Positions 167 to 28,926 of a stretch of 32,550 nt of DNA are shown in pieces. A program made the translations under genes and the position numbers. The notes under the pieces are model-generated. The model was not told the origin of the DNA and did no database searches. It saw nothing but the letters and a program-made list of their open reading frames with translations. The stretch spans positions 1-32,550 of the IMG/VR virus record IMGVR_UViG_3300026521_000088. One strand, written 5' to 3'. Positions within the stretch are counted from its first letter, which is position 1. Every line of letters begins with the position of its first letter. This DNA is from a virus (Duplodnaviria > Heunggongvirae > Uroviricota > Caudoviricetes).

Positions 167-925
167 TTATATAGAATTATTAAATAAATCTGCTATAAGT
201 TGCCCTTCTGTACCTGTTTTATGAGCCAGTTTATAATGAGGTACTGCTGGTTGTGTTATATGATATTGCTTATATAATTTTTGTTTAAGTGTTAATAACG
301 ATCGTTTTTGTGCATTTGTTAAAGGTTCCCAAGCACCATTCTTATAAACACCAGTAGCTTCAATACCTATACCTCCATTATTACCTTTAGAACCAGCATG
401 CCATAATTTCTTAGTTGGGTCTCCTATTTGGTAAATTTTACCATCTTGTGTAACAGTGTAATGAGCAGCTAAACCTTGCTTTAAAGCTCTAGGGTCATTC
501 GGTGTATTAAAACCATGTCCAGCTGTTCTATGAGTTACTATTCTATTAGGTGTTTGTGTACCATGATACAATACTGGAATATCATATTTTATAACATTAC
601 CATCTACTACTCCAGTATATTTAGTATTTTGTACTGTATCTGTTGTAGTTGATTTAGACTGTTGTATAGGTTTACCTAAACCTTGTTGAGTCTTTTTATA
701 AGTTAATATATCATTATCTAAAGATTGGTTTAACTGAAGTTTGTTTAAATCTATTTGTTGCTGTTTTTTAATAGCTAAAGCATTAGCTTCTGCTATATCT
801 TTCTGTTGCATATTAGATAAAATACTGGATGTATTACTTTGTAAACCAGGAGCAATATTACCTATATCACTAGATCGATTTTTATTAGCACTTAATTGTA
901 AAGCTTTTTGCATTAAGTTAGACAT
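167..925 (-). CDS. N-acetylmuramoyl-L-alanine amidase (Amidase_2/PGRP/T7-lysozyme family) with a ~100-aa low-complexity N-terminal extension
   Basis: Motifs IVTHRTAG, AAHYTVTQDGKIYQ, LWHAGSKGNNGGIGIEATG and VPHYKL match the Amidase_2 pattern. An SD-like AAGGT lies upstream of the ATG. Confidence 0.85.
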   Translation of the reverse strand: MSNLMQKALQLSANKNRSSDIGNIAPGLQSNTSSILSNMQQKDIAEANALAIKKQQQIDLNKLQLNQSLDNDILTYKKTQQGLGKPIQQSKSTTTDTVQNTKYTGVVDGNVIKYDIPVLYHGTQTPNRIVTHRTAGHGFNTPNDPRALKQGLAAHYTVTQDGKIYQIGDPTKKLWHAGSKGNNGGIGIEATGVYKNGAWEPLTNAQKRSLLTLKQKLYKQYHITQPAVPHYKLAHKTGTEGQLIADLFNNSI

Positions 926-1275: not shown

Positions 1276-4200
1276 TTACTTACTCAATTGCTCTATATTA
1301 TGAAATAATGCTGGATTTACAATAGTGTCTAGTGTCATTCCAAGTAAATCTGCAGGTGTGTGTATTGAAGATGTTAAATCTCTAGTGAGTAAACTATCTC
1401 CTAGTGGACTATCTTCATATAATGTACCACCTGTTATTACTGCTAATCCTACATTTAAAGGGTTCTTTAAAGTAACCCTACTTAATACTTTTTGTATTCT
1501 AAGTAAGAACTTCGTAAACATCATAAATCCTCTATCTTCTAACCATTGCATACCTTTACCTTGCTTAACATTATAGTTAATTTGATTATCTAATATTTGT
1601 TTTACAGCAACTTTATGTGGTACTCCTTTATGTTTTAAATTATAATATGTTGAGTATCTAGCTCCAAAGTCACTGTATTGCATAGTTTTTAATAAACCTT
1701 TATACATATCAGTATTTTTAGATATATAAAGATACCCTAATACTTTCTTTACTTTATCTGGTACTTTAGTAGTTAATTTCTCAATTCTACTATCTATATA
1801 AGTTTCTCTATGTAAATCAGCATTAGCTATATCTTCTGTAGTAGATGTATACATACCTGCTTCTATTAATGGTTTTACTGGATTTTTCTGTAAATCATTT
1901 ATTAATTCTTTTTTTCTATTTAACTCTTTACTTGTAACTACCCCTGCTTTTTCTTTAACCTTTATCTTCTTTATCTCTTCTTCAGTTTTTAAATAACTAT
2001 CTAAGTATCTCATACCTTTTATTTGTTCTTTAATCTCATCAATAGGGCTTCTTCCTTGTAATACAGCTAATAACATATTTGATAATATATTAAAGTATAG
2101 TACATGAAGAGATCTAACAACAAGTATAGGTTTTAATGTCTTTATCATATGTTTCCATAACATATCAAGTAATCTAATTACTTGTGCTGCTTTAGGGTAT
2201 TTAGCTGCTAACTTATTTTGAGTATCTCTACCAAATAATATAGCTTCTCTGTTCCCAAATACATGATATACTTGGTTTTCTCTTATAGGTATAGATGGAT
2301 GTCTTTTATATAACTCTTTTACTTGTTCTTTAATATCCTCAGATAAGTCTTTACTCTTTCTATATTCTTCAATATATTCTTTATTTAATTTAGATGTAAT
2401 TTCTAGTAATTTAGATACATCTGGATCTAATTCATTGTATCCTTTTTTTAACTCTATCTCTAAATCTACTATTTTATCAGTTTTTACTACTTTATCTTTT
2501 ACTAATACAGCTATTTCTTTTTGTATTCTATTATAGTGTCTTCTTATAATGTCTATTTTAAAATACCTAGGCATAGGATTCCATACTTCTATAGATTTAT
2601 CATTCTGTTCATAAGGTCCTATAAGTACATATTCCATTCTATCATATTTACCTACTCTTTTACCATACTGATAGTTTCTCTCTGCATTTAATTCTACTTC
2701 ATCTAATACTTGTAGATTTACCTTTTTTGATAATCTAATGTCTGCAGCTCTAGCATAGGATTTAGCATATACTGTTTCTACTTTATTTTTAGTTCTAAGT
2801 ACATTTTCTAACTCATTCTTACTTACTGTTATATTCATATCAGATACATATAGTGTGCCTTTATGGTCTATTGACCATATAGGCATCATTCCTGTATTTT
2901 CTGGTATATAGTATTCATTTCTCATTTTAAGCATTTCAGCTTTAACTTCTTGCTCTTTAAGAGACATTATAAGGTTAGTTTCTTTTCTTACAGCATCATG
3001 TTTCTTTTTATCAAATAAATCCTTATCTTCTAACATCTCACTTTTTAGTATATTTGTATATGAATTTATAGCTACAGTATCGTTAGTAGTTTTTACTGCT
3101 CCTGATTTCCAACCAGGTTCAGCATAAGAATCATTAACATATACTGTAAAATTATTATCATGTGTTAATGTATTATATGTATTATCTGATATTTTTATTT
3201 TTTTATAACCACTAAGTAGCATTTTCTTAGCAGTTTCTTCATCATCTCTACCTACCCTATATGTTATATATGCAGCATTAATTTTTTGATGATGTCCTTT
3301 CACTTTATTAATATCATATTGTCCTTCAAATTCTTCAATATGTCTATATTCAGCATCTATCATTTTACTATATCTACTTAGTAGATATATCTCTTTTTCT
3401 TTATCTTTTATAATTTTAGATACTCTAGTATTTAATACATTATCATTTTCTTTAATAGCGTATAGAGTAGCTAATTTATCAATTAAAGCTTTATTATATT
3501 TAGCTATAGGTAAATTATTAGCCATTTTAATATTATCAAATTTATCAGAAAAATAAGTACCGTATATCATATATGAGTTAGGTAATTGCCCTATACTTGC
3601 TTCACCAGTTACCATATACTTACCTAAACCTTTAGCTTGGTTGATAATAACTTGTACTTTATTACCTTTACCTATACTATCTTCTAATTGACTTTGTGTT
3701 AAATATATCTGTGTTTCTAGATAATCTGGATCTTCTAATATTTTTACTAAAGTTTCAAAATTAGATTCTTTAATTTTTGGTAAGTTATCATTTAATATAC
3801 TTTCAAATTCTATATCAACTAAACCTTTAGTAATATCTGTACTTTCACTATCCGTTAATGGTAATATCTCCTTAATAGTATCTGACATAACCATAGTAGC
3901 TGTATCAATAGCATGGTCTATTTTATTAGTTACTACTCCTAGTTTTTCAATATTATATTCATGGTTATCACTTTGTCTAAATCCTCTAATAATCTGTTGT
4001 ATATCACCAGAACCTTTTAAACCTTCAATACCAAAACCTTTAAGTAATTTACCAGGTATTTCTCTCATAAATGTTTCAAAATCACCTACTGTACCCTCAT
4101 CATCTGATACTAACCACTTAGCAAATATTTTAGTGTATATCTTAGTTTTCTCATATTTACTTAAATTTTCATCATCTAATCTATTTAAATCTTCTCGATA

Positions 4201-5289
4201 TTTTTTATTAGCTTCAGTACCTATATTAGCTTTAATCTTATCTACTTGTTTTTGTATTTTAACTGATAAATATTCATTAGCTTGTTCTAACTTATTTGAA
4301 GCATACTTTGATATACCTGTTTTAAATTCTAAATCTTTATATGCTATATTATTTATTTTAGTAATTTCTTGTAAGTATCTAGCCATAGCTTCAGCACCAG
4401 TTTCTTCTTTTCTATTACCTCTAATTTTTTCTCTAGTAACTTCATATAAATTTTTAATTAGTGCTATTAGCTTAGTGTATAATGTATTACCAGTATATTT
4501 TTCCCTTTTAATTTTAACTCTGTTTTCTAAGATATTTTTCACTCTTATATCTGTCTCTGCTCTAGCCATAAATTCATTAATACCTACTCTAGGATTTTTT
4601 AAGTATTCTACTAAATCCTTAGCTATTTTTTGTTCTGTAACTAAGTTTATACTAGTCTCAGGCATAAAATCTGTATACTTTACTTCTTTTAAAAATGCTT
4701 CATATATTTCTTGAATATCTATTATAGATTCTCTTACTTTATCAGGTGCATTTGTTATAGCAAATTCTCTAGCAGCATGTCCTAATTCATGTACATACAT
4801 TTCTGCTGCTGACATTGTATTTCCAGCTATTAATGCACCATTTGATACATCTACATAAATACCTTTCTTTTTGGTATCTGTATCTTCCATAACCATACTA
4901 CCAAAATTTTTATCTGCTTTACTAATTACTTGTACCATATCTGGTATATTTTTATTTAATTCATTAGTTAAATTTTTCATAGTGCTTCTTAATAAATCTT
5001 CATGCTCTTTACTTATTTTAACACTATCTAACTCTAATAATTTATTAAATATTTCATTATGTTTTTGTGGATTATTTATCATATCAGCAGATACCTCTAT
5101 TAAGGTACTACTATTAGTATTTGATGTATCATTTGTAGCATTATATGTAGTTACATCATATACTTCTTCTACTATCTTATTAGCTAATTCTCTAGCTTTC
5201 TTATATTTCATATTAGGAGCTTGTTTTACTAACTCTCCTAATATATCTTCAAATATCTCATTCTTTACTTTTATACTACAATTACTCAT
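1276..5289 (-). CDS. Virion ejection protein resembling the C-terminal part of N4 vRNAP (HExxH metallopeptidase-like domain plus C-terminal domain)
   Basis: AEMYVHELGHAA (HExxH at 4777-4791). The C-terminal MQYSDFGARY...INYN...G.QWLEDRGFMMFTKFLLRIQKV resembles, from memory, the conserved C-terminus of N4-type vRNAP polyproteins. Its only Cys is residue 4. Confidence 0.7.
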   Translation of the reverse strand: MSNCSIKVKNEIFEDILGELVKQAPNMKYKKARELANKIVEEVYDVTTYNATNDTSNTNSSTLIEVSADMINNPQKHNEIFNKLLELDSVKISKEHEDLLRSTMKNLTNELNKNIPDMVQVISKADKNFGSMVMEDTDTKKKGIYVDVSNGALIAGNTMSAAEMYVHELGHAAREFAITNAPDKVRESIIDIQEIYEAFLKEVKYTDFMPETSINLVTEQKIAKDLVEYLKNPRVGINEFMARAETDIRVKNILENRVKIKREKYTGNTLYTKLIALIKNLYEVTREKIRGNRKEETGAEAMARYLQEITKINNIAYKDLEFKTGISKYASNKLEQANEYLSVKIQKQVDKIKANIGTEANKKYREDLNRLDDENLSKYEKTKIYTKIFAKWLVSDDEGTVGDFETFMREIPGKLLKGFGIEGLKGSGDIQQIIRGFRQSDNHEYNIEKLGVVTNKIDHAIDTATMVMSDTIKEILPLTDSESTDITKGLVDIEFESILNDNLPKIKESNFETLVKILEDPDYLETQIYLTQSQLEDSIGKGNKVQVIINQAKGLGKYMVTGEASIGQLPNSYMIYGTYFSDKFDNIKMANNLPIAKYNKALIDKLATLYAIKENDNVLNTRVSKIIKDKEKEIYLLSRYSKMIDAEYRHIEEFEGQYDINKVKGHHQKINAAYITYRVGRDDEETAKKMLLSGYKKIKISDNTYNTLTHDNNFTVYVNDSYAEPGWKSGAVKTTNDTVAINSYTNILKSEMLEDKDLFDKKKHDAVRKETNLIMSLKEQEVKAEMLKMRNEYYIPENTGMMPIWSIDHKGTLYVSDMNITVSKNELENVLRTKNKVETVYAKSYARAADIRLSKKVNLQVLDEVELNAERNYQYGKRVGKYDRMEYVLIGPYEQNDKSIEVWNPMPRYFKIDIIRRHYNRIQKEIAVLVKDKVVKTDKIVDLEIELKKGYNELDPDVSKLLEITSKLNKEYIEEYRKSKDLSEDIKEQVKELYKRHPSIPIRENQVYHVFGNREAILFGRDTQNKLAAKYPKAAQVIRLLDMLWKHMIKTLKPILVVRSLHVLYFNILSNMLLAVLQGRSPIDEIKEQIKGMRYLDSYLKTEEEIKKIKVKEKAGVVTSKELNRKKELINDLQKNPVKPLIEAGMYTSTTEDIANADLHRETYIDSRIEKLTTKVPDKVKKVLGYLYISKNTDMYKGLLKTMQYSDFGARYSTYYNLKHKGVPHKVAVKQILDNQINYNVKQGKGMQWLEDRGFMMFTKFLLRIQKVLSRVTLKNPLNVGLAVITGGTLYEDSPLGDSLLTRDLTSSIHTPADLLGMTLDTIVNPALFHNIEQLSK

Positions 5290-5292
5290 ATA

Positions 5293-8256
5293 TTACTCAC
5301 ATTCTTTAATTTTAGATTTGTATTTATTATACATTTTTTTAGTTAGTTTGTTCTTAATAATATCTCCTTTATTATATGTTAATTCATCTGATAAAAATTC
5401 AGATGGTAATAGTTCAATAATTTTTATATTATTATCACTATTTCTTATATTAGTCTTAAAGAAGTCTATACTATTTTTAGCTTGTTGTAAAGATCTATTT
5501 ATAGTATTTGTTCTAGTACTGTTACTAGTTCTTTTTTGTATTGTATACTTATCATTTTGTAACACAGCTATATCAGATACTTTTAGTATATGTTTATTTG
5601 TACTTGGTGTTAATATTGTATAACCTTTATCTCGTAATATTACTAGTTCATCTGCAAGTTTTTTGTATATTTTATCTTTATTTTTAATTTTTTTAAATGC
5701 TTTAACTATATAATCTGTACTATCAATACCTAGTAAATTTACTAGTACATCATCACTATCTATAATTTTATCATAATTACTAGCTAGAAATGTTTTACCT
5801 GAACCTGAATTAGCTACAATAATCTTATTTTCGTATTCTGGTTTTAGTACACCTATACCTTCTTTAGAGTCTTTATAAAACGAGTTAAAATCCCTTACAT
5901 CTTTTGTCCTTGGTATAAATGGTGCCAGTAAATTCTTAGCATCAAATATAGTAGCTGCTTTAGCAACTGTTACTGTACTACCATTAGGTGCTACCCAATT
6001 AAATGTATCTTCTAATGTTTTCTTTTTATCTTCACTTAAGTCAACCCAAATAGCTTGTATACCTGTTGTTCTTTCAGCAACAATAGTTGTAGTGAACCCT
6101 GACGGATTTCTCTCAATATCAGCTTCGTATGTACCTACAACTTTATTATTTGTATCTACTATATCGTATGCTACAATTCTACTAGATGTACTATGTTCAT
6201 TAAATCTTTTTATATTAGCTAATTTAGTACCTTTTGGTGTAACTGCTAATGTAAGTACACTACTTGATTTTAAAAAATTTTTTGCAGCATACTTCCCTAA
6301 AGGTTCCAATATGTCTATTTTAGCTAAATTACCAATTTTACCTAGTGCATTCATAATAGCTTCATTATCTGGTATTGAGAAATCAAATAATACAGTTATT
6401 TCAGAATTTTGTTGCAATTTATAAATAATTTTACTTATTGTTTCAGGTGTTGAGTCTAATAATGCAAAATCTAAATCATGTAAGTCAGTACCATTTTTAC
6501 CTTGTTTTCTATATATTGTTCCTTGCATAGCTAATGCTTCAGAACCAGTAAACACTGCTGTATTATTAGATGCTTCCATAACATCATATATAATACTAGC
6601 AGCTTTTGGTTGTTGTTTAAAATCATTTGTTGGATTAACTTTTTTAGTACCTTTTTTAGGTTTAAATGATATAGCTTCTGCATTTTCTCCATTATAAATA
6701 TTCAAAGCTAATTGTTTTATATTGAAATCTATTTTATATTGTTCAAATTGTTTTTTATTAAATATTTTAGCAAATGTATATTTTATAAATTTAAGTATTT
6801 TACCTAATATACTATTATCAAAACTTTTACCTAAACCAATGTCTAACAGATCATCTTTAATACCTTCAGATATTTTATGCTTAGCTTCTTCTCTTGTTAT
6901 TGTACAGTCTTTACTTACTTTAGTTATTAAATTATTTACAAATGTTGATTTTTCTAACATATTAACATATATATCAGCATACTTTTTTATACTTATATCT
7001 GCATTATTTACATAACTATCTACAGCTAATACTAGTTCTTTTTTAGTATACTTATCAACACTATCTTTGACATCTGGATACATAGTTTCTAATTTATTTA
7101 AAATTTTATTATATATATAAGTATCCATATCATCATAGGTTTTTAAGTCTTTAGCTTCTAAAAAGTTATTTGTTAAAATATTTCTTAACTCTTCTTTAGA
7201 TTTATTATCTAATTTTTTAAATAACCCTTTAACCCAAGTACTAAACTTTTTCCACCAATTATAAGCTAAACCTTTTTGTACTACTACTTGTTCTCCAATA
7301 GCTTGTACTAAAGCTTCCTCAGTACCATATTTTTTAATACCAGTTTGTACTATAGGTGACTCTTTAAACATTGCTATATAATGATGAGCATATTCATGTG
7401 GTAATGTATCTTGTGTTTGTAGCTCAGGATTTATAAGTACAGATAGAGCTTTTATATCTGCTTTACCTCTAATATTTTTACCTAAGTCTTTATAATCTAG
7501 TTTAATATTAGGGTATAATTTTTTTAATAATTCTTGTAACCTTTTATTTAATTTCTCATCAAATTTACCTGTATTAGGTGTATTTGTTTTTTGAAATTCA
7601 GGTATATCTTTATCTGTATTTACATCTTCAGCATTATCAATATCTGCTAAGTCCAATAAATCTTTATAAGCTTCATTATAAGTTTTATATACACCTATTT
7701 GTAATCTAAGTGCAAATTCATTACTTATATTAACATCTGTTGTAGCTAGTATAGTTTGGAATTTTTCAGGTAAATCTGTTATACTAGTATCAGTAATCTT
7801 TGTATCAGTGTTTGATGTAGTTGGAGTATTAAACCAATCATCTGTATTAGTAGCTCTTTTTTTAGATTTTTTTAATTTTTTTATATTCTTTATTATAGTA
7901 TACCCTTTATCAATATAAAAATTAAAATCATCTATATCATCAAATACACTATGTATATATACTACAGCTGGTTCACCATCCATAGTTAGTATAGGATGTT
8001 CCATCTCAAATGAGAAATAATCATAATTGTATCCTTGTTCTGCTATAACATCTTTTAAACTATTATATTTACTAGTATTAGATTGTTTTTCTTTATTACC
8101 TTTTAAATCGCTACTAATAGTATTTTCTGTATTGTTATTATTTACTAATATTTCTAGTTTATCAACTAAAGGCTGTATAGCCTCTTGTTGTTTTATATTA
8201 TAGTTTAGTGATAGTTCAGCTAACTTATTTAGTAAGTCTAATGCTCCACATTCCAT
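5293..8256 (-). CDS. Polyvalent protein: HExxH metallopeptidase-like, Pol-beta-superfamily nucleotidyltransferase and P-loop kinase-like domains
   Basis: LPHEYAHHY (~7384-7398). FTGSEALAMQGTIYR...LHDLDF...IFDAK...RTKDVRDF (~5890-6555). IIVANSGSGKTFLA...IIDSDD (~5760-5825). Cys only at 3, 451 and 986. Confidence 0.75.
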   Translation of the reverse strand: MECGALDLLNKLAELSLNYNIKQQEAIQPLVDKLEILVNNNNTENTISSDLKGNKEKQSNTSKYNSLKDVIAEQGYNYDYFSFEMEHPILTMDGEPAVVYIHSVFDDIDDFNFYIDKGYTIIKNIKKLKKSKKRATNTDDWFNTPTTSNTDTKITDTSITDLPEKFQTILATTDVNISNEFALRLQIGVYKTYNEAYKDLLDLADIDNAEDVNTDKDIPEFQKTNTPNTGKFDEKLNKRLQELLKKLYPNIKLDYKDLGKNIRGKADIKALSVLINPELQTQDTLPHEYAHHYIAMFKESPIVQTGIKKYGTEEALVQAIGEQVVVQKGLAYNWWKKFSTWVKGLFKKLDNKSKEELRNILTNNFLEAKDLKTYDDMDTYIYNKILNKLETMYPDVKDSVDKYTKKELVLAVDSYVNNADISIKKYADIYVNMLEKSTFVNNLITKVSKDCTITREEAKHKISEGIKDDLLDIGLGKSFDNSILGKILKFIKYTFAKIFNKKQFEQYKIDFNIKQLALNIYNGENAEAISFKPKKGTKKVNPTNDFKQQPKAASIIYDVMEASNNTAVFTGSEALAMQGTIYRKQGKNGTDLHDLDFALLDSTPETISKIIYKLQQNSEITVLFDFSIPDNEAIMNALGKIGNLAKIDILEPLGKYAAKNFLKSSSVLTLAVTPKGTKLANIKRFNEHSTSSRIVAYDIVDTNNKVVGTYEADIERNPSGFTTTIVAERTTGIQAIWVDLSEDKKKTLEDTFNWVAPNGSTVTVAKAATIFDAKNLLAPFIPRTKDVRDFNSFYKDSKEGIGVLKPEYENKIIVANSGSGKTFLASNYDKIIDSDDVLVNLLGIDSTDYIVKAFKKIKNKDKIYKKLADELVILRDKGYTILTPSTNKHILKVSDIAVLQNDKYTIQKRTSNSTRTNTINRSLQQAKNSIDFFKTNIRNSDNNIKIIELLPSEFLSDELTYNKGDIIKNKLTKKMYNKYKSKIKECE

Positions 8257-8265
8257 ATATATCCT

Positions 8266-11200
8266 TTAACAGTTTTCTAATAATGTTTGTAATAAATCAT
8301 TATTTTTTATTTTATTAGTACCAACTAAATCTTTTAGTATATCTTGTATAGCTTTTTTAGGAGCTGGTTGTAACTTATTATAAGTATCTATTATACTATC
8401 TAAATCTTTATTTTTACTAGATTTTATGTTTTTATTTTTTTGTATAAACTCAACCATTTCCTTAATTCTCTTAGAAACACTCCTACCACTAGTAAGTAAT
8501 GCTATATACTCTTTAGCTTTTTTCTTATTTATATTATCAGTAGCTTCTATACTTTTCATAGCATCTAACATACTATTTTTTGGTATTTGTCTAAATGTTA
8601 TACTGTATCTATAATTATTTTTTGCTTTACCAACAGTATGGTATAGTAATCCTGTATTCATTTCAACCAATGAGCCATTAGGGACTGTAATTGTATTACC
8701 ACCTATTTTATGGTCAGTAATAGTATCGCCTATACTTACAATAGCTACAGGACCAACATTACCATTAACATCTAAATAAATACCTTCTGCATCTTGATGA
8801 TTTCCTATACCTACACCTTTACCAAATCTATTAAATAGTACATGATTGTATTTACCAGTTTCAACACCTAATTTACTTTCTACTTTTCTAGCTAATTCAG
8901 ATAACCATTTTGGCATTGGTTTTGGTTTATGTATTAAAGTACTTTTACCCCCATTATACCTATACTCTATAGGACCAAACACTTGTGCTACTTGAGTTTG
9001 TACATTATGTGTATTTGATTTATTATTAGCAGTACTAGTTTTTATTAAATTTTCCATATTATTTATTAATGTTGTACTATATGTATCATTTATAAAATTT
9101 TCATGTATTACTACATCTTTAGGTTTAGATTTAGTCTTAGGTATTTCAATTGTAATAATATTTTCAGATTTTATAGTACTTTCATCAGTACTTTTTAAAT
9201 AATTCTCTACATCTTTGTATGTAGTAAATTCTTTATTTTTAATAATACTAGGTACTAGTAATGCTATAGCTACAGGTAGTTCATCTACTGTATCTTTAAG
9301 TGATTTTGGAAAATCTTCAAATTCAGTACTTAAGTATACATTCTTTTCACCAACTTCTTTACCATTAATCTTAGTAGGTATATTTATATTATATTTAGAA
9401 AATATGTTTAATAACTTAACTTCTAAATTTTCTGATAATTTTTTACCAGACTCTAATACTAAAGATATTGTATTAAATGCAGTTTTATCAGCTCTACTTA
9501 TATCATTAGGTACTAATTTAACTAGTTTAAGTAATGTATTATTATCTTTACTAAATTCTATATCTGTTTTAGCTAACCTTTCTCTGATATTTGTAAGTAT
9601 TTCTGGAAACTTTTTTGACCAATACTCTGGTATCTTATCTCCACTATGTGTCAATACTTTATTACCAGTACTTAATAATAAAGCTTTTGCAGAATTGTTA
9701 TCAGTATAGTACTTTAACATAATCTTTTTTAGTATAGCTTCTGTTTGTTCTTCCCAAGCTTTTTTAAGATTTTTATCTTTACTCTTAATATTTGAACCTA
9801 GAATTTTTGCAGCAAACCCTGATGTATAATTACGCTTAAGTCCAGTATCTTTTGGTTTATTCCATTTAGCACCTTCTTTATTAAGATTAAGTATCTTTTC
9901 TGCTATCTTATGTTCACCAAAGAATTTAGCTTTAATATACTGATATGCTCCTTCTACAGTAGCAAATTCAGTATGTCCTGTAATAAACTCTGTATCTGTA
10001 TTATTTACTGGTATTGTATTAGAATCTAATATAACTGTACCAGTATTAAAGTTTGATAAGCTATCATAACCATTAGCTTCAGTAGAGTGTATATTTATAA
10101 CTTTATTAGTTTTTACTTTATTTATATAGTCCTTAATCTCTTTTAATTTATCTTTACTAGGATTTTCTAATAAATCATTAGTATATTCTAATAATTTACT
10201 CTGTAACCCAATATCCTGTGTATTTGCAAATATCTCATTAAGCACAAGTTGTAGGTTAGCTATTTTATTATTATTATCATAAGGTAGTATTTTCATATAT
10301 GTTAAATTACCAGTTAATAAGTTTAATCTATTAGCTAGATAATTATATAGCTTAGGGGCTTTAGTTTTTAAATTAGATACACCTGTACCTATACCGTTAG
10401 ATGGTAATACTATTGTTTTACCTTCTTTAAGATAATTCTCTACTACAGCTAAATCTGTATCTACTTGTTTTTTAAATTTATCAAAATCTTTAGTTTCATA
10501 AAATCTAGTAGAATCTTTAGTATTAGCATTTTTAACAGTAACTATACCTATAGTATTAGGTAATCCTCTAATTACTGCTTGTGTAATATTTGGGTACCTT
10601 CCTTTAGTTTCATCTTTAATATCTATTAAATTTTGACCAGAAGTTCTTTCTTCATTATCACCAAATAAGTAAATCTTATCCATATCTTTCTCTACATTAG
10701 ATCTATATAATTTTTTTATTAGTTCTACTTTATTATTATACGGTACAAACTTAGAGTTAGATACAGGTTTTTTTGAACTATTTACTTGAGTATTATTTTT
10801 AGTAGTTCTTTCATTGTTATTAACTACACCTTTATTTAGTAATTCTTTATGATTTATGAGATTTCTCAATACTTTAGCGTGAGTTAAATCACTAGTTTTT
10901 TTATAATAAATTATTTGTTTAGGTACAGTATTATTACCTATTACTTTTATATCTAATTTACCATCTAGTATTTGGGAAATTATCCAATCTCTTCTATTAG
11001 GTTGTACATCTAAATCAGATTTTTTAAGTAACCAGTTAGCAAATCTTTTACTCACTTCTTCTTCATTACCTGCTTTAATAATATAACCAGCTTTTGTATA
11101 CTGCTTATCTTTACCTTTTTCATACCCTGTAACTAAGAAAGGATTACCATAATGATGTTGTGCATCTAAACCTTTTACATAATCAGATTTAAATACTCTC

Positions 11201-12147
11201 TTGGAGTATATACCTAAATTACTATTATGTGCTGTAACTGCACCTTTTTCTGTGTTAGTTATAAGAATGCCATTATTACTAATATCAGATAATACATTTT
11301 CAGGAAGTTTATTAGATTCTAATTTATCTCTTACAGGTTTATCTTTATCTTTCTTAAGTACAGCATCTAATTGTTCTTGCCATTTAGGATCAGCCATATT
11401 AATTACTGGTCTACCTTTTTTGCTAGCTAGTATAATAGCTTGTCCAGTACCTCCAGTATTATGTTCATTATTAGTACCACCATAATATACTTGACTATAA
11501 TTAGTTACTGCTTCACCTTTATTATTTAATGGTGTCCAAGCTAGTACAAAATCTACTGGGTTATCTAAGTCTTTACCAAATACTTGGTTAGTATTTCTAG
11601 CCATTAACTTAGCTGGACCATCACCATTTTTAATTAAAGCTTCAAAATTACCGTGAGTTTCTTTAGCTACATTCCATTCAATACTATCTTTTTTAATATC
11701 TTCAGGTCTATATAATTCTCTAGTGCTTCCATCTTCTTTAGTACCATCAATAAATGCTCCATCAGCACCTTCTTTTTTATTTTTAAATGTCAATCCAGTT
11801 CTAAGTGTATATCCTTTAGATTCTAAATATTTAGCAACTTCTGTCATAGTTTCATAAATAGGTTTACCATTACTATCTACAGCTTTAGTACCTCTTCTAC
11901 TTCCAATACCAGCATAAGTCATAGACTTAGAATCTTCTGTATATTCTGGTAATGAATCTAATATAGGTGTAAGTTTTTTATCTACTATTGTATTTTCAAT
12001 TATTCTAATCTCTACTTCAGAACTATAAACTCTACCTAAAGTTATTAAATTATGTATAGGTATAGAGAACTTATTAGAGTTCTTTACACCATATTTATTT
12101 TGTAATTTCTTAATCTCTGATTCTATCTTTTTTGCATCACAATTCAT
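8266..12147 (-). CDS. Polyvalent protein: SLOG (DprA/YspA-like), DUF4326-like, macrodomain-like, NADAR (YbiA) and AlkB-type 2OG-Fe(II) dioxygenase domains
   Basis: SLOG: YAGIGSR...LRTG...GADGAF...ARN..QVFG.DL..PVDFVLAWT...GGTGQAI. DUF4326-like: YGNPF...RRDWI...HAKVL. Macro-like: YLFGDN...QAVIRG.PN.IGI.T...LPSNGIGTG...APKLYNYL. NADAR: LSNF...FATVEGAYQYIK...LLLSTGNKVL. AlkB: EYRYNG...NHVLFNRF...GIGNHQDAE...VSIG...YHTV...RYSITFR. Cys only at 3 and 1293. Confidence 0.85.
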   Translation of the reverse strand: MNCDAKKIESEIKKLQNKYGVKNSNKFSIPIHNLITLGRVYSSEVEIRIIENTIVDKKLTPILDSLPEYTEDSKSMTYAGIGSRRGTKAVDSNGKPIYETMTEVAKYLESKGYTLRTGLTFKNKKEGADGAFIDGTKEDGSTRELYRPEDIKKDSIEWNVAKETHGNFEALIKNGDGPAKLMARNTNQVFGKDLDNPVDFVLAWTPLNNKGEAVTNYSQVYYGGTNNEHNTGGTGQAIILASKKGRPVINMADPKWQEQLDAVLKKDKDKPVRDKLESNKLPENVLSDISNNGILITNTEKGAVTAHNSNLGIYSKRVFKSDYVKGLDAQHHYGNPFLVTGYEKGKDKQYTKAGYIIKAGNEEEVSKRFANWLLKKSDLDVQPNRRDWIISQILDGKLDIKVIGNNTVPKQIIYYKKTSDLTHAKVLRNLINHKELLNKGVVNNNERTTKNNTQVNSSKKPVSNSKFVPYNNKVELIKKLYRSNVEKDMDKIYLFGDNEERTSGQNLIDIKDETKGRYPNITQAVIRGLPNTIGIVTVKNANTKDSTRFYETKDFDKFKKQVDTDLAVVENYLKEGKTIVLPSNGIGTGVSNLKTKAPKLYNYLANRLNLLTGNLTYMKILPYDNNNKIANLQLVLNEIFANTQDIGLQSKLLEYTNDLLENPSKDKLKEIKDYINKVKTNKVINIHSTEANGYDSLSNFNTGTVILDSNTIPVNNTDTEFITGHTEFATVEGAYQYIKAKFFGEHKIAEKILNLNKEGAKWNKPKDTGLKRNYTSGFAAKILGSNIKSKDKNLKKAWEEQTEAILKKIMLKYYTDNNSAKALLLSTGNKVLTHSGDKIPEYWSKKFPEILTNIRERLAKTDIEFSKDNNTLLKLVKLVPNDISRADKTAFNTISLVLESGKKLSENLEVKLLNIFSKYNINIPTKINGKEVGEKNVYLSTEFEDFPKSLKDTVDELPVAIALLVPSIIKNKEFTTYKDVENYLKSTDESTIKSENIITIEIPKTKSKPKDVVIHENFINDTYSTTLINNMENLIKTSTANNKSNTHNVQTQVAQVFGPIEYRYNGGKSTLIHKPKPMPKWLSELARKVESKLGVETGKYNHVLFNRFGKGVGIGNHQDAEGIYLDVNGNVGPVAIVSIGDTITDHKIGGNTITVPNGSLVEMNTGLLYHTVGKAKNNYRYSITFRQIPKNSMLDAMKSIEATDNINKKKAKEYIALLTSGRSVSKRIKEMVEFIQKNKNIKSSKNKDLDSIIDTYNKLQPAPKKAIQDILKDLVGTNKIKNNDLLQTLLENC

Positions 12148-15100
12148 TAACAGTTACCATCCAGTACTTTAGTAAGTATTTTTATTATTTCTATATTATA
12201 CTCTATTTTTTGTTTAGTATCTTTAATACCATTAGTAGATAAGATACTTTTTAAATAGTTTTGTCTTGCTTTCTTAGTTTTTAATGCTTGAAGTTCAGGT
12301 ATATTATTAATACTACTTAATCTACGTTTTATTCGTAATTCACCTTCTTCTATAAATTTATCTATATTATATGTAGCTTTAGACTCTATAGCACTATTCA
12401 TTGCTGGGAATTGGTCAACAACTACATCATGTGAAAACATCTCTTGTCTTTTTATCCATACATCCTCTGCTAGTTGTTCTAACTCTACTACTTGGTCTAA
12501 AAATGGTTTAGTGACATACTCTTCATCACCATTTTCATTAGTTTTTTTAGATTGCTTTTTCTCACTTTCTGTACGCATATCATCTAAGTTAATATAATCT
12601 AAATTCTTAGCTTCTTCATATACAGCTCTAGCACCTTTAGCCATACTATTAATGTTATCGTATGCTTTACTTGTTTCTATAAAATTGGTGTTCATACTTT
12701 TTACAGTATCTAATTGTCCACTAGCTCCTAAAACTAAAGCATCATGTACTGGTATAATACCAGTTTTATCTATATTATCATTAATAGTTTTAGCCATAGT
12801 TACAGCATCTTCTGTATGTGTAGGTATAACACCTGCTGCTGAGTAAGCTTCTGTTATTTTCTTAATAAATATTTTAGTAGATATTGTTCTACTTTCCCCA
12901 CTACTAGTAGTATATCTTAATGCTGGTTTATTATCAGAATATGGTATGTCATCATCTTTAGCTAAACCACTATCAAAAATAAAGATACCATCTTTTAGTC
13001 TATCACTAGAAGCTGGTCCATCAAATATAGGTAAAAATTTAGCTAATTCTTTAGTTAATTCAAGTGTTTCATCTTGAGATAATGTAAGAATTTTTCTTTT
13101 ACCAGTATTATTTTTATTTAATTCTTCTAACTTTTCCTCTACTTTTTTAGTCATAGCTTGTTCAAATATTCTCATCATATATCTTGATGTAACATTTACT
13201 GCATCAGTAACTTTAATCATCTCACCAAATGTAGACTCTACAGCCTTTGATACAGCTTTACCTAATGAGTTTTGAAACATAGTAGTTAATACTGTATCTA
13301 AGTTATTCTTTTTAGTACCTAACATATGCAGTGGTGTATTACCTAAAGCTAATACTAAATCATCAATAGTGTCTATATTTAATGTTTCATTGAGTTGAGC
13401 AACAGGTAATAAATGAGATAATGTTAATGCTGCATTATTTTGTAAATCAATATCTTCAGTATTATGGTAATCTTTTAGTAATTTACTAATAGCTTTATTA
13501 GCAGTTGCTTTACCAATATTCTTAATTACAGTCTTTAATGAACTACCATACTGTGTAGTCATAGTAGGGTTTTTAAGTAAGTCTCTTAGAGCTTTAGTTA
13601 ACCCTTCATCAATATCTGGTAAGAATTGCATAAATAAATCATCTTCTAATACATTACCATCACTATCAAATAGTAAACCTAAAGGATCAATAGAACTTAT
13701 ATCATCATCAGGTGCTTTATTTTCTAATAAAGCATTAACTAGGTCTTCTTTTGAAATTTCAGCAATAATACCTTGTGAGAAGTAAATATCTAGCACTTTA
13801 CCTTCTTCTCCATTTTTTCTAGATTTATTACTCTCACCTAATTGTGTTAACATACCATCTTTAAGCATATCATCATAACTTACACCAGTTTGATATAAGC
13901 CAGAGTTATCAGTATCTTTAAATACAAACCCACCTTTAACTAGTAATTCATAAATATTTTTACTTAGTGGTATTTGTAAAGATTTAATCATAACACCATT
14001 TGTAACACCATCAAATTCAGCAGAAATATGAGCTTCAAAATTATCATTTGGACCAGCATTCTTATAAGCTTCAATAGCTGCTAAAGCTTGCATTGCATGA
14101 CCAAAGTGATCTATATTTTTCTTACCATCTTCACTAATTTCAGTAGCTAGTTTAAATAACTCATCCATATCTTTTGTTAATAAATCTGTTGCAAAATCTA
14201 TAGTATCTTGAGGTATTTCTTTATCAATGTCTAAACCAAAAGCTTGAGCAATACCAAATTTAAAACCTATAGTATCTAAAACATCTTTATCTATAGCTGC
14301 TTTATTTAGTACACTTCTAGATTTAACTGGTACTGTGAGCCATCTATGAGCTTCTTTCTCATTCTGTTGGTCAATAAGTACTGATTTACCATTAAGTCTG
14401 TTATTCTTAGGAGTGAACCATGTAAAATAAAAAGAATTATTTCTAACACCACTAGTTATTTTAGTATCTAGCTTTAGTAATTCATCATAAGCTCTAGTAA
14501 TACCAAGATTTTGTGCTTTAGCTACTGATTTATCATATTCAGATAATGTAACATCATTATCAATATCAACATCATCTCTCCAACCCATAAGTTTTAAAGC
14601 TTGTTCTTTTGGTACTTTTTTTACCCAATCCATAGCTTCTGGTATAAGATAATTCTCTTGTTGATTTAAGTTATTAATAGCATCTGCTACAGTTTGTGTA
14701 GGTATAGTAACACTATTATCTTTAATACCTATTTCTTCTGGTGTCATAGTTCTAGGTTTTTCAAATTGAATACTATGACTATCTTGAGGAATAATTGTAT
14801 CTTCTTCTAATTCATCAATAATATCTATAGTTTCTTTTAATATATCTTTATCTGTATCTTTTTTAAATTTTAAAAAGTTAACTGAAGAATCTTTATTTTT
14901 ATCTGTTATTTCAATATCTAAGTCAGCTTTCTCAGCATACTCTTCCAGAGACATAGCTACATTATCCATATAACGCTCTTCTAACATTGCTACACCTAAT
15001 AGTCCTAATCCAGATTTAAAACGGTTATATGCTGCTATATCACCATCTTTTGGTTTAGCTTGTAGATCTAGTAAATCCATAATTGATGTACCAATATCAT

Positions 15101-18100
15101 TAGCTAAACTAGCTCTAGTTGTTAGGTTCTTAAATGTATTTCTCATCTCATCAGTAATTTCATACTCATTTTTACCTAACATAGAAGCTATCTGCTCATC
15201 TTCTTTATAACTTAATTTACTTAATTGATTTCTTAAAGTAGTGTATGTAGCTACAAATACAGCAGTAGCAACATTCTTATCTATATTACCCTTATCATCA
15301 AGTATAAATGCAGTACCAGGTTGTCTAAAGTCAATATAATTTTTAAGTTTTTTACCATTAACATCAAGCTCAATATCTTTAAAAAATTTAACAGCTTCAT
15401 TTGTTATTTTAGTTAATGTTTTACTTTCTATCATATTAACAGGTACCATACCTAATAATGATGTACCTTTCTTCTTAGTTTGTGCAAAGTCTTCAAATTT
15501 TAAAGGTATACCAGATTCTAATCTAGCTTCTTGTGCTTTTGTATCTATTTTACCACCAGACATAGGTGTATTACCAGCTCTATATTTTTGTCTAAGTAAT
15601 AAATTCTTAGTGTAATTAGGTGTAGATGTTTCAGTTTTAAGTCTTTTAAGTCTTTTAGTCAATACTGCTAATGTTCTTTTATTTCTACTTTGTTTCTTTA
15701 AAGCTTTCTTTCTGCTATCATTAAAATTTTGTAATTCATCATATTGTACTTCAGTATCTTTATTAAATAATTTAATTATTTTTTTAGTAGTTTTAGAGTA
15801 TTCTTTTTCAAAGTTTTCTATATTTTTAGTAGAATTATCTAATTCTTTTTTCTTAGTTTCTAGCAATTTCTCTTTTTCTTTAATTTGTTTATTTAATGTT
15901 ACCATATCTTTAAGAATTTTACCACTACCATTAACTAATTTACCTAGGTAATTCCATAGATTTTTATATACAGTTCTTAATTTTTGTATAGTAGTTTCTC
16001 TAATCTTTAGATTCTTACTATGGTTATTTGTTAATTTATGTACTTCTTTATTAAGATTAAATAACTTATCTTGTAATTGTATACTTTTACCTTCTAAAGT
16101 TTTTAACTCTCTTTCTAATTTAGCTACTTCTTTTTTATCTACTCTTTCCTTAGCTTTAAGCTCTTTAAGTTTATTGTTTAATAATGTTAAATACTCTAAA
16201 TGCTGTTTAGTACTTTCAGTCATAGTTTCTGAAGAATCTAAGATTGTTTTTTCAATAGCTGAAATTTTAGCTTCAGTAACTTTACCATCTACTGTAATAG
16301 TTTTTATAAATTTTTTATTATTAGCTTCAATTTCTTGTTTAAGTTGGTATATTTTGTCTTCTAACTCTTCTACTTCTAGTCTTTTAGTTACTACTTCAAT
16401 ATCACTCTGTGTATTTTCTTCTTTATTACTATTATGTTTTTTATCATATTTTTCTTTCTCTCTATTAATCTCATGAGGTACTGTAACTTCATTATCAATA
16501 TTTAATAAACTATTATACAAATCCAATTCAGTTTTAATAGATTTTGCTAATGCAAATATATCTGTAGTTTTATCCGTACTACCATCAATATTTCTAGGTG
16601 TATTGAATTTTTGATCAACAATAGAATTATAGCTAATAGTTATTTTCTTATTGCCATTACCAGTACCTACTTCTTTGGACTCTAATTTATATATAGAATG
16701 TAGTGCATCTATAAGTTTAGTAGGGTCATTTCTTAGCTCTTCTGCTGTATAGACTACTTCATCTTTACTATCAGATAACATATCTTTTACATCAATACTA
16801 GGTACTGTATAACCATTAGCATATAAATCTTTAATAGTAGCATTTATATCTGAAGACATATTTTTAATAGCTTTAGCAATAGCTACTAATTTAGCTTTTT
16901 TAGTACTTTGTTTAGTTTTAATCTTTTTAACTACTTGTTCTTTAGTTTTAGCTAAAGACTCTATTTTTCTATCAATATCATAAATAGATATTAATTTTTT
17001 AGCTTTTAATCTACTATAATAATTAGCTCTATTAGAACCTGTAAAACCTTTAGATAAGAATGTTTTAATATCAGGTGGTGTAGTTCCATCAGGTATATGT
17101 TGTTTTATATAATTTTCAGTAAATTCTATAGTTTTTTGTTTAAGTTTTTCATAATGTTTTATTGCTAATTCATTATGTTTTATTTTCTTAATTCTTTCAA
17201 CAATACCATCTTTACCATATATATCTTCAGCAATAATTCCTTCTGCTGTAAGTTTAACTTTAGGTTTTTTAGTTTGTTTTTTTGATTTAGTTTTAGTACT
17301 TTTTTTACTATTCCTGTTATCTGTTTTTTGACTAGTATTGCTAGAAGTTTCAGTATTAGGATTTTCAACATAATCATCTACAGTACTATCTATTGTGCTA
17401 TCATAATTCTCAATAGCATTTATATAGGTTTTTATATTATCTAAATCTTGTTTCTCTTCATTAGGTAAACTATCATAATAAGGGACCATATTATCTAATA
17501 AAGCTTTTAACTTTGGTATAGGTAAATTATTTACATGCTCTGGTAATTTATCATGAAGTTCTTGTATTACAGAAGAGTCTGGAGTAGCTCCAAATACTTG
17601 TATTTTCTCAGAATACGTCATATTATTTAATCTATCTAAATCTACATCTGACAATACTTTAGTACTTACATCATTAATTTTAGCTTCAAAATTATTAATA
17701 GCTTGTTCATAATTTTTTACTTTAGCTTTCTCTTCAGTTGTTAGAGTATTATAATCTAGTTTATCTAAAGCTTTTTGTAACCTATCAAGTACAATTTTAC
17801 TAGAACCTAATTTAGTATTTTGCAAAGCTTCTTGTGATACTATGGCATCATCTAAAATACCAATATGTTTATCTAACTGAGAGACTTTACCATCTTTACT
17901 AAGTAATAATGTATCTAATTCATTTAATACTTCTTTATTATCATATTTACCATTACTCATTTTAGCAGATGGTACTTCATTCTCTAGTTCATTATATAAT
18001 GTACTTACTACATCTTCATGGTATTTACCATCTAGTGTATTTTTAATAGTCCTTACTTTAGCACCTTGATTTTGTACTAGTTCTAATAATTCTTCTGATG

Positions 18101-27591: not shown

Positions 27592-28926
27592 CTAGCTCTC
27601 TTTCAGTGAACAGTTAATCATACGAATCCACTCTGGATGTAAGAACATAATACCAAAGTACCATGAAATACTCATTACACCTGTATTACCAAATGCATCA
27701 TAACCTTGTGTAATATCACCAGGCATTTTAGTTTTAACTTTAGCAACATCTCCTTCAAATCCAATAGTAGCAAATGACTCATTACCTACAAATAGGATAG
27801 GGAATACATCATATCTTTCTTCACCATCTGAACCAATACTTGAATATCTGTTTGCTCCATCTTCATCATCATCATCATCACCAGTCTTAGCACCTTGACC
27901 AGCATAACTAGCCATATCTTCAACTTCAATAAATCTAAACTGTCCAATAGAACCAATCTCACCATCTGCTACAGTAGTTGCTCCTGCATAAGTTTCTACA
28001 GGTTTCCATACTTTAACACCATTATGTTCCATATCTTCAAGAGTAGGTAGTGCTTCAGTAGGTACATATACATATCTAGCTTTACCAACAACTCTAGTAT
28101 CAAATTTACTTTGACCAGTAATAATCTTAGTATCTTTAGGAGCTCTAGCTAGTGTTAAAGATCTTTCCATTTTACGAAGTGATTCATAAGTTAGAATATC
28201 TCCAGCACCTACTTCATCAATAGCTGTAGCATCACCAGCAAATACTCTGTTTTGTTCAGCTTGACCAATAAGAGCATTTCTAATTTGAGCTTCTCTAATA
28301 GTACCTTGCGCTGCACCCATTTCTCTAGACATTCTAGCTTTTAGAGTTTTTTCTGTATCCATTTCAAGAGCTTTTTTAGTAAATTCTTGGAAGAATCCAT
28401 ACTCTTCAATCTGAGCTTCAATAACAAGTCTTTTCATACCAACTCTGTTTACCCAACCACCTTCTTCTGATAGGATAGGGAATGCTCCATTTTGAATAGC
28501 TAAATCTTTAGATGTACCATACATATTACCATTACCAGTTCTAACAGTACCATCTTCACCAGCTTTATCTTTAGCCTTATCTTCTGTAGAATAACCTGTA
28601 TTATTATCTGCATCAGCATCATCTGTAATTCTAACACCATCAGCATCATAAGCATACCATACACCAGCTAGTACTTTTACACCATTAGCATCAATACCTT
28701 CACTGTTAATGTTTCTATCATCAAGAATTGGTAGATCATGGTATTTAACCATTTTATCTCCATAATTTTTCTTTTGCATCAAAGGACTACCTAATTGTGA
28801 GAATACCTTAGTTCTTGCTGCTTCAATTACTGCTCTTCTAGACCAATACTTATCATTAATCTGTCTACCAATACTTGAGTTAGTTGCTGATGGTGCATAA
28901 CCACCTTCGTTAAATGACTGTGCCAT
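27592..28926 (-). CDS. Major capsid protein, N4-gp56 family
   Basis: PILDDRNINSEGIDANG, GNMYGTSKD, LSEEGGWVNRVGMKR, GFFQEFT, DTRVVG.ARYVYV, GEIGSIGQFRFIEV, YDVFPILFVG.ESFATIGF and SISWYFGI closely follow the N4 gp56 motif series. Confidence 0.96.
   Translation of the reverse strand: MAQSFNEGGYAPSATNSSIGRQINDKYWSRRAVIEAARTKVFSQLGSPLMQKKNYGDKMVKYHDLPILDDRNINSEGIDANGVKVLAGVWYAYDADGVRITDDADADNNTGYSTEDKAKDKAGEDGTVRTGNGNMYGTSKDLAIQNGAFPILSEEGGWVNRVGMKRLVIEAQIEEYGFFQEFTKKALEMDTEKTLKARMSREMGAAQGTIREAQIRNALIGQAEQNRVFAGDATAIDEVGAGDILTYESLRKMERSLTLARAPKDTKIITGQSKFDTRVVGKARYVYVPTEALPTLEDMEHNGVKVWKPVETYAGATTVADGEIGSIGQFRFIEVEDMASYAGQGAKTGDDDDDEDGANRYSSIGSDGEERYDVFPILFVGNESFATIGFEGDVAKVKTKMPGDITQGYDAFGNTGVMSISWYFGIMFLHPEWIRMINCSLKES

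Follow-up and report, generated by a model that had tools for sequence, protein, structure and literature searches.

We analysed the first 32.5 kb of the 104,075-bp viral record IMGVR_UViG_3300026521_000088, which has an estimated completeness of 95%; this whole stretch of 32,550 nucleotides (nt) is called the window below. All long open reading frames (ORFs) of the window lie on the minus strand, with a GC content of 26-30%. Four consecutive ones, at 1276-20288, are best explained as one functional unit. The outer two encode the halves of a giant virion RNA polymerase (vRNAP) of the type known from phage N4, which we call vRNAP-N and vRNAP-C, and the inner two encode large proteins that we call cargo 1 and cargo 2 (Table 1). 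An earlier reading made from the letters alone (the sequence-only reading) had placed the four ORFs correctly and had given the right combined length for the halves (2713 + 1337 = 4050 amino acids (aa)). The spacing between the four ORFs is -1, 9 and 3 nt, and the two polymerase halves are 6,857 nt apart. In a consensus scan, which is suggestive only, no terminator-like site was seen at the three junctions between the four genes; besides the site at the end of vRNAP-C, there are two inside vRNAP-N and one inside cargo 2.

Upstream of the four genes lies a late structural module with N4-like PHROG matches (major head protein phrog_1357, E 6e-88; phrog_2120; phrog_2050), followed by two small proteins without a family match, and an amidase-like gene comes after the fourth large ORF. 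The succession of a 168-aa protein, a 448-aa protein and the polymerase is the same as that of gp52, gp51 and gp50 in N4. The polymerase has the place in the late operon that gp50 has, after two small Cys-free proteins.

Two halves of an N4-type polymerase

vRNAP-N matches PHROG 2206 (virion RNA polymerase, 3406 positions) over profile positions 777-1997 with an E-value of 3e-63. Searches of PDB sequences with the protein (phmmer) and with a hidden Markov model (HMM) of seven split N-parts gave no match, so that profile-profile comparison was needed. The profile of the seven split N-parts aligns to residues 1168-2061 of N4 gp50 (hhalign, probability 99%, E 2e-18). The T7-like polymerase motifs are invariant in these seven sequences (motif A, D2093; motif B, R2235, K2239 and Y2247; motif C, D2516), and so is the cysteine C2713, the last residue of the chain. 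vRNAP-N ends 197 aa past the motif C aspartate D2516, and not about 120 aa after motif C as the sequence-only reading had estimated. The protein is about 600 aa longer than the N-terminal domain and polymerase of N4 together, the excess being a long Lys/Glu-rich, helix-like stretch; within residues ~640-1560, the N4-type profile matches only the last part, from residue 1242.

vRNAP-C matches the same PHROG family (E 7e-106; best stretch at profile positions 3034-3394) and the solved N4 vRNAP chains in the PDB (E 8e-22). By BLAST, its residues 148-355 correspond to residues 2200-2390, and its residues 468-1285 to residues 2728-3445 (E 2e-43), of gp79 from the Acinetobacter phage Presley (3492 aa), with the HExxH motif of vRNAP-C (residues 167-171) aligned on that of Presley (2212). 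A profile of 11 vRNAP-C homologues, in which M1, C4, E168 and H171 are invariant, aligns to N4 gp50 as far as residue 3470 (hhalign, probability 99.9%). The hhalign comparison of the profile for this C-terminal domain (CTD) set the HExxH stretch on N4 2441-2514 with low confidence, and the Presley BLAST alignment was used there instead. The sequence-only reading had assigned an HExxH domain and a vRNAP-like C-terminus solely to this ORF, about 6.9 kb downstream of vRNAP-N. The CTD is indeed found there; a second HExxH motif is present in the 987-aa cargo 2.

Table 1. Positions of the polymerase locus, its junctions, domains and motifs in the window.
Feature	Position	Strand	Basis or remark
Positional counterpart of N4 gp52 (small ejection protein), 168 aa, no Cys	21654..22160	-	Synteny and size only; no PHROG match
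Positional counterpart of N4 gp51 (ejection protein), 448 aa, no Cys	20298..21644	-	Immediately 5' of the polymerase gene as in N4, L008 and L013; no PHROG match
vRNAP-N, 2713 aa: N-terminal domain and T7-like single-subunit RNA polymerase domain	12147..20288	-	
Polymerase domain of vRNAP-N, residues ~1693-2600	12489..15212	-	Stretch aligned to the N4 RNA polymerase domain
Junction 1	12139..12152	-	Cys2713 codon 12150-12152, overlapping TAATG stop/start, cargo 1 Cys3 codon 12139-12141
Cargo 1, 1293 aa	8266..12147	-	Pfam and PHROG domains
DprA-like domain of cargo 1	11338..11928		phrog_768, E 3e-28
DUF7831 of cargo 1	10330..10716		Pfam, 89 bits, above curated cut-off
NADAR of cargo 1	9646..10074		Pfam, 38.9 bits (cut-off 35.1)
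2OG-Fe(II) oxygenase (2OG-FeII_Oxy_2) of cargo 1	8590..9027		Pfam, 37.8 bits (cut-off 31.2)
Junction 2	8248..8271	-	Cys1293 codon 8269-8271, stop, 9-nt spacer with AGGA, start, cargo 2 Cys3 codon 8248-8250
Cargo 2, 987 aa	5293..8256	-	Motifs read in the sequence
HExxH of cargo 2, residues 287-291	7384..7398		
Pol-beta-type nucleotidyltransferase motif of cargo 2	6454..6549		GS...DLHDLD
Walker A (P-loop) of cargo 2	5788..5811		GSGKT
Junction 3	5278..5301	-	Cys986 codon 5299-5301, Glu, stop, 3-nt spacer, start, vRNAP-C Cys4 codon 5278-5280
vRNAP-C, 1337 aa: homologue of the N4 gp50 CTD (C1 with HExxH, and C2)	1276..5289	-	
HExxH of vRNAP-C	4777..4791		Aligned on the Presley HExxH
Terminator-like hairpin and T-run at the vRNAP-C stop codon	1269..1285	-	Consensus scan, suggestive only

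In N4 gp50, a disordered linker (residues 2102-2123) connects the polymerase to the CTD, and the HExxH-containing subdomain C1 of the latter spans residues 2124-2375 (PMC13434306). The N-part ends at about N4 residue 2100 and the C-part starts at about 2060-2100. The break maps to the linker, within a few tens of residues, because the N-part runs about 75 profile columns past N4 2061 and the offset of the HExxH motif puts residue 1 of the C-part near N4 2060. By sequence comparison, vRNAP-N and vRNAP-C tile a single-chain N4-type enzyme in order, without a large overlap or gap, which is the collinear arrangement that the sequence-only reading had anticipated, and the break appears to fall at or near the flexible linker between polymerase and CTD. 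A copy of the locus from another sample is 94% identical, and more than 100 diverged stand-alone homologues of vRNAP-C share the same start; therefore, the split is not an assembly artefact. These relatives were obtained by protein searches, a pattern scan of viral contigs with the single CTD sequence having returned none.

The locus shares the polymerase motifs, the CTD with HExxH-containing C1 and large helical C2, and the avoidance of internal Cys with N4 gp50 (Schitoviridae; PDB 9pnq and related entries). However, gp50 is one chain of 3500 aa with zero Cys, whereas the locus splits the enzyme into two chains, places two more proteins between their genes and has single Cys on the facing ends. 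Instead of the continuous chain of ~3400-3500 aa that is typical of N4-type enzymes, we find two ORFs 6.9 kb apart with conserved stop and start codons, and instead of a complete lack of Cys, each half has a Cys-free interior and one terminal Cys. The genomes also differ in size (about 70 kb for N4 and about 104 kb, with 27% GC, here).

A split polymerase has been described before. In the AltAD45 phages the enzyme is made as two polypeptides; the stop codon was re-sequenced, and bands of 270 and 175 kDa were observed (Garcia-Heredia et al. 2013, PMC3821669). Phages AltAD45-P1 to P4 of Alteromonas (ORF127 and ORF126; genomes of 100-104 kb) have the same split boundary, their N- and C-parts being about 2480 and 1400 aa long, respectively. 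In AltAD45-P1, the sole Cys of the N-part is at position -2 and the sole Cys of the C-part at residue 4. For the authors, the presence of cysteines indicated a protein that is not injected; where in the chains these lie went without comment (PMC3821669). In contrast to the window, where genes for 1293 and 987 aa intervene, the genes of the AltAD45 halves are directly adjacent. The AltAD45 gel bands, together with the amino acid composition, provide indirect evidence only that the polymerase halves are packaged and injected.

Variable genes between the halves

Cargo 1 contains four domains above threshold (a DprA-like domain, DUF7831, NADAR and a 2OG-Fe(II) oxygenase; Table 1) and has no HExxH motif. 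At the thresholds applied, neither Pfam nor PHROG gives a family match for cargo 2; three motifs (HExxH, nucleotidyltransferase and Walker A) are conserved in its homologues at the related loci L003 and L006. For residues 540-987 of cargo 2 a weak fold model was obtained (predicted local distance difference test score, pLDDT, 60), and its matches, with E-values of 1.6e-3 or higher, are leads only: nucleotidyltransferases (4ok0, MenT toxins) and shikimate and adenylate kinases. The structure-atlas matches of cargo 2, to AbiEii/MenT-like nucleotidyltransferases, small P-loop kinases and ArdC/M78-like peptidase contexts, are likewise leads only. Searches of PDB sequences with cargo 1 and cargo 2 gave no match, and relaxed Pfam scans of the unassigned cargo segments yielded sub-threshold noise only.

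Large multi-domain arrays that are encoded among virion genes and predicted to enter the cell with the DNA have been termed polyvalent proteins, and N4 vRNAP is counted among them (Iyer et al. 2017, PMC5512222). An HExxH peptidase-like domain usually accompanies the N4 polymerase module in the chain, and in some cases additional effector domains are fused to the module (PMC5512222). The CTD of gp50 is also related to the T7 internal virion protein D, and such proteins have been described as hosts for cargo domains (Hardies et al., PMC4819975). A polyvalent protein has at least two unrelated enzyme or effector domains in one chain encoded among virion genes. Cargo 1, with its four domains, is of this kind, and cargo 2 is a candidate by its motifs and weak fold matches. 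The locus differs from a polyvalent protein that carries all modules, including polymerase and peptidase-like domain, in one polypeptide and for which release by autoproteolysis was proposed: the modules are distributed over four separate ORFs, and the separate Cys-capped polypeptides would be released by reduction. Neither cysteine nor disulfide is mentioned in that study (PMC5512222). Judging from their domains, the cargo enzymes probably serve in repair or counter-defence, ahead of any phage gene expression.

In related loci the flanking halves are conserved and the middle is variable, with either no gene, one gene of 425-1319 aa, two genes or one fused protein. There is no cargo between the halves of AltAD45-P1, nor at L008, where an N-part of 2460 aa and a C-part of 1322 aa are 2 nt apart. 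A single middle gene is found at L013 (425 aa), L010 (725 aa), L004 and L005 (1125 aa, with DprA-like and DUF7831-like parts) and L019 (1319 aa). A homologue of cargo 2 (72% identity) lies just 5' of the C-part at L003, and this position is occupied at L006 and L007 by one protein called at 3840 aa. The L006 protein, of which 3,332 residues were recovered (the first ~508 residues and the upstream gene lie outside the data), contains a Dda-like helicase, DUF7831 and NADAR, and its C-terminal part resembles cargo 2 (36% identity over 770 aa). In some relatives, extra domains are fused to the N-terminus of the C-part, such as a superfamily 1 (SF1) helicase in P0158. The number, size and content of the inserts differ already in the clade nearest to the window, in which the C-parts are 36-54% identical. 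The comparison of synteny gave the conserved flanks and variable middle genes that the sequence-only reading had expected, and its proposal of a variable cargo slot is supported: the break appears to be an insertion site for extra multi-enzyme proteins. The further suggestions of that reading go beyond this: that any gene gaining Cys at both termini could join the chain would be hypothetical, and use of the slot as a protein-delivery platform would be an extrapolation.

Cysteines at facing chain ends

Ejection proteins of Schitoviridae suppress Cys (0.00075% in gp71 homologues versus 0.865% proteome-wide), which has been ascribed to their passage through the periplasm (PMC11445570). In the window, the four large proteins contain 7 Cys in 6,330 aa, whereas about 68 would be expected at the ~1.08% Cys of the remaining genome, and six of the seven are located on the six neighbour-facing ends. 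The sole Cys of vRNAP-N is residue 2713 (the last), cargo 1 has Cys at 3 and 1293 only, cargo 2 has Cys at 3 and 986 (of 987) and an internal one at 451, and the sole Cys of vRNAP-C is residue 4. The outer ends of the four-protein chain are Cys-free. We considered Cys451 of cargo 2 as a fossil junction and rejected this explanation, since the 72%-identical homologue has Tyr and L006 has Glu at this place. Just past the terminator, the window also encodes a Cys-free 252-aa protein (167-925, minus strand) with an amidase/endolysin-like C-terminal half (PHROG, E ~1e-10); as it has no terminal Cys, it would by the cysteine rule stand outside the chain.

The pattern is found throughout the related loci. 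In 11 loci (27 proteins, 40,419 aa), 32 of the 33 Cys sit on the 32 junction-facing ends, and 16/16 junctions are paired; L019 has two further paired junctions beyond this tally. Complete middle proteins have Cys at both ends only, apart from the extra internal one of the 987-aa cargo 2. Outer proteins, whole or in the recovered part where a contig end cuts them, have one Cys, at the inward-facing end only. A scan of 1.84 billion cluster representatives with the C-part gave 831 matches at E-values up to 0.001, and the best 150 were inspected. These best 150 of 831 include 122 stand-alone proteins of 1100-1700 aa, 113 of which have a Cys in the first six residues; in 111 of the 122 it is the only Cys (residue 3-6). 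The commonest starts are MSC, MAC and MGC. Homologues of cargo 1 lack internal Cys in 41 of 55 cases; they have a Cys at most six residues from the C-terminus in 31/55, from the N-terminus in 27/55 and at both ends in 10, and in 9 more a second Cys is present at -6/-7.

Fused forms serve as controls. The single-chain polymerases N4 gp50 (0/3500), Presley gp79 (0/3492), P0022, P0084, P0102 and P0119 are free of Cys. At L006, where parts homologous to cargo 1 (the NADAR region) and cargo 2 are combined in one chain, the sole Cys of the 3,332 recovered residues is the last one, and the helicase-CTD fusion P0158 has its only Cys at residue 4 of the chain. In a tree of 146 CTDs, full-length Cys-free forms adjoin split Cys-bearing forms, with five state changes by parsimony. 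Two sister pairs are supported at 0.999 (P0119/P0083) and 0.953 (P0084/P0141), and the fused P0084 continues without Cys through the start position of its split partner P0141. From the fused controls, the tree pairs and L006, it follows that the Cys track chain ends, not domain boundaries, and that they are gained and lost in pairs. An explanation by a nucleotide-level signal at the Cys codons was also considered and rejected, as both TGT and TGC are used, the distance to the stop or start is variable, and the interior depletion is at the protein level. Two long single-chain relatives do contain Cys. P0152 (4604 aa) breaks the Cys-free rule with 13 Cys, the first six listed being at residues 2284-3400, upstream of the CTD match (4224-4436); the Cys-rich stretch may be an insert at the same slot. 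P0168 (3725 aa) has Cys at 3471 and 3476.

Cellulophaga phage phi14:2 (L017, 4998-21201), which its record files in Crassvirales, encodes an example of the Crassvirales RNA-polymerase cargo trio: three consecutive giant proteins, g067, g066 and g065, that are confirmed virion proteins by tandem mass spectrometry according to the record. Cys are present only at their facing ends (g067, 1797/1797; g066, 3 and 2179/2180; g065, residue 3). The polymerase of this crAss-like phage presumably has a different fold from the T7/N4 type, and the shared pattern does not imply homology to the N4-type chain. We thus met the facing-terminus Cys pattern of consecutive giant virion proteins in the window, in the 11 tallied loci and in phi14:2.

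Another phage contig with 28% GC (L018, 1498-17239) has two sets of Cys-capped proteins. One consists of 205 aa (Cys204) followed by 731 aa (Cys5); the other consists of proteins of 1969, 528, 158 and 1480 aa with Cys at the facing ends only. The cysteine rule seems to reach beyond N4-like phages, because the 1480-aa end protein of L018 has no N4-type polymerase match. Near the C-terminus, single Cys also occur in the major head protein (Cys439/444; window 27592-28926), in a 166-aa protein of the virion module (Cys162; window 25053-25553) and in a 239-aa protein ending in EVECE (Cys238/239; genome G000:C1:47031-47750, minus strand). These three could be due to chance or could be further disulfide partners.

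A possible coupling of the pieces and its alternatives

For N4 gp50, autoinhibition by the CTD and a beads-on-a-string model of ejection have been put forward (PMC13434306), and the N4 CTD is needed for encapsidation (cited in PMC3821669 and PMC5512222). With moderate confidence, we favour a model in which an N4-type polymerase is cut at its linker, the cut is used as a cargo slot, and the pieces are rejoined by disulfides between terminal Cys and ejected as one chain. Evolution would have cut an N4-type 'polyvalent' ejection polymerase between the RNA polymerase domain and the CTD, and the cut would have become an insertion site. A head-to-tail disulfide could then link each piece, through its C-terminal Cys, to the Cys at residue 3-4 of its successor. 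Such a joint would be hardly thicker than a peptide bond, because the Cys are within ~4 residues of the chain ends. The CTD could bring the other pieces into the capsid, and the set may be threaded through the ~35 Å tail channel as one 'beads-on-a-string' chain. The reducing cytoplasm would open the links, which would free the polymerase of its autoinhibitory CTD and release the cargo enzymes. NADAR, the AlkB-like oxygenase, the nucleotidyltransferase, the kinase and, in relatives, the helicases would fit a role in repair or counter-defence at entry.

In A-B toxins, an interchain disulfide withstands the passage of an oxidising compartment and of a narrow translocation route, until the cytosol reduces it and releases the active enzyme. 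The analogy would be limited to this logic, since the proteins and translocation machines are unrelated, and here the link would run end to end between whole proteins.

Several points weigh against disulfide coupling. We infer both the presence of the cargo in the virion and the disulfide link. Capsid assembly occurs in the reducing cytoplasm. Searches of the phage genome revealed no thioredoxin or glutaredoxin, and no phage thiol oxidase was found, the Erv/Alr-type search having matched no control genome either. The model offers no means of setting the order of the chain, and cargo 2 has the internal Cys451. The AltAD45 authors saw two separate bands, under gel conditions that are not stated in the paper (PMC3821669). 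Avoidance of Cys in ejection proteins is usually ascribed to the danger from periplasmic disulfide catalysts (PMC11445570); on this logic, exposed terminal Cys or disulfides could be a liability there. A complex prediction with the last 154 aa of the N-part and the first 280 aa of cargo 1 scored 0.14, which speaks neither for nor against binding.

The main rival to a disulfide link is a metal-bridged clasp, in which the terminal Cys would join the proteins, or several copies of them, via a shared metal ion or cluster, or via another virion component. We consider this unlikely; the split, the slot and co-ejection would still hold if it were correct. N4 packs 4 +/- 1 copies of vRNAP (PMC13434306), which could give four thiolates to one site, and the reducing cytoplasm, which disfavours disulfides, would allow a metal site to form. 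The frequent position of the Cys beside an acidic or amide residue (NC, EC, DC) would also suit a metal, as would the failure to find a phage thiol oxidase in a search that was equally silent on the control genomes. However, each terminus has a single Cys, with no conserved second ligand or CxxC, and every gene junction has one C-terminal and one N-terminal Cys that are lost together in fusions. This pairwise arithmetic argues for direct links.

It is more doubtful still that the middle genes are expressed late and their products remain unpackaged, with the Cys serving a cytoplasmic role apart from ejection, in assembly, in regulation or as a cysteine switch on HExxH. The CTD and cargo 2 both have an HExxH motif that a thiol could cap, but cargo 1 lacks this motif and yet has Cys at both ends. 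The cargo proteins also share the extreme depletion in Cys of ejection proteins, with 1 internal Cys in 2,280 aa versus ~25 expected at 1.08%. Moreover, the spacing between the cargo genes and the polymerase halves is -1 to 9 nt, none of the three junctions has a terminator-like site, and elsewhere the same domains are fused to the CTD or to each other in one giant chain. We give almost no credence to splicing of the pieces by split inteins or other ligation chemistry, or to a sequencing or assembly error as the source of the split. The Asn-Cys found at two termini resembles the C-terminal junction of an intein, but a Pfam scan detected no Hint or intein domain, the Cys are 0-4 residues from the ends and leave no space for intein halves, and most relatives have EC, DC or KC, not NC. 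An error is at odds with stop codons that are conserved in more than 100 diverged clusters, and with the re-sequenced stop and two gel bands of AltAD45.

We are evenly divided on a wider version of the disulfide model. In this version, podophages from two or more unrelated lineages (N4/AltAD45-like and crAss-like) would build a modular protein train. Any protein free of Cys except for one at each end could be coupled head to tail by disulfides between a fixed polymerase 'engine' and a fixed CTD 'packaging hook', and the train would be threaded through the tail as one chain and uncoupled by cytoplasmic reduction. The slot between polymerase and CTD would then offer counter-defence enzymes a natural plug-and-play site.

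The split itself (AltAD45, 2013), the suppression of Cys and the polyvalent proteins are already published. Our literature searches brought up no account of genes inserted at the break as cargo or of paired terminal cysteines, and hence none of the cargo slot or the cysteine rule. Disulfide coupling, if true, would bear on how megadalton amounts of protein are moved through a channel of ~35 Å, and would be a new way of building an injectable chain from exchangeable parts. It would make clear why a cut in an essential polymerase is tolerable for a lineage. It would also point to a large set of so far unannotated enzymes at work during the first seconds of infection, including NADAR, AlkB-like oxygenase, helicases, nucleotidyltransferase and kinase. 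For annotation, a giant Cys-free phage protein with one Cys at an end could be read as a member of a chain. The cysteine rule is widespread among uncultured phages and can be tested in the cultured AltAD45-P1 and phi14:2.

Two further observations in relatives concern genes for which counter-defence or modification may be the role. An Anti-Pycsar Apyc1-like protein is encoded in a neighbouring early-gene region at L002 (9976-10710), and a block of glycosyltransferase, Stealth, APS-kinase and ATP-grasp genes is present at L004 (13573-19241).

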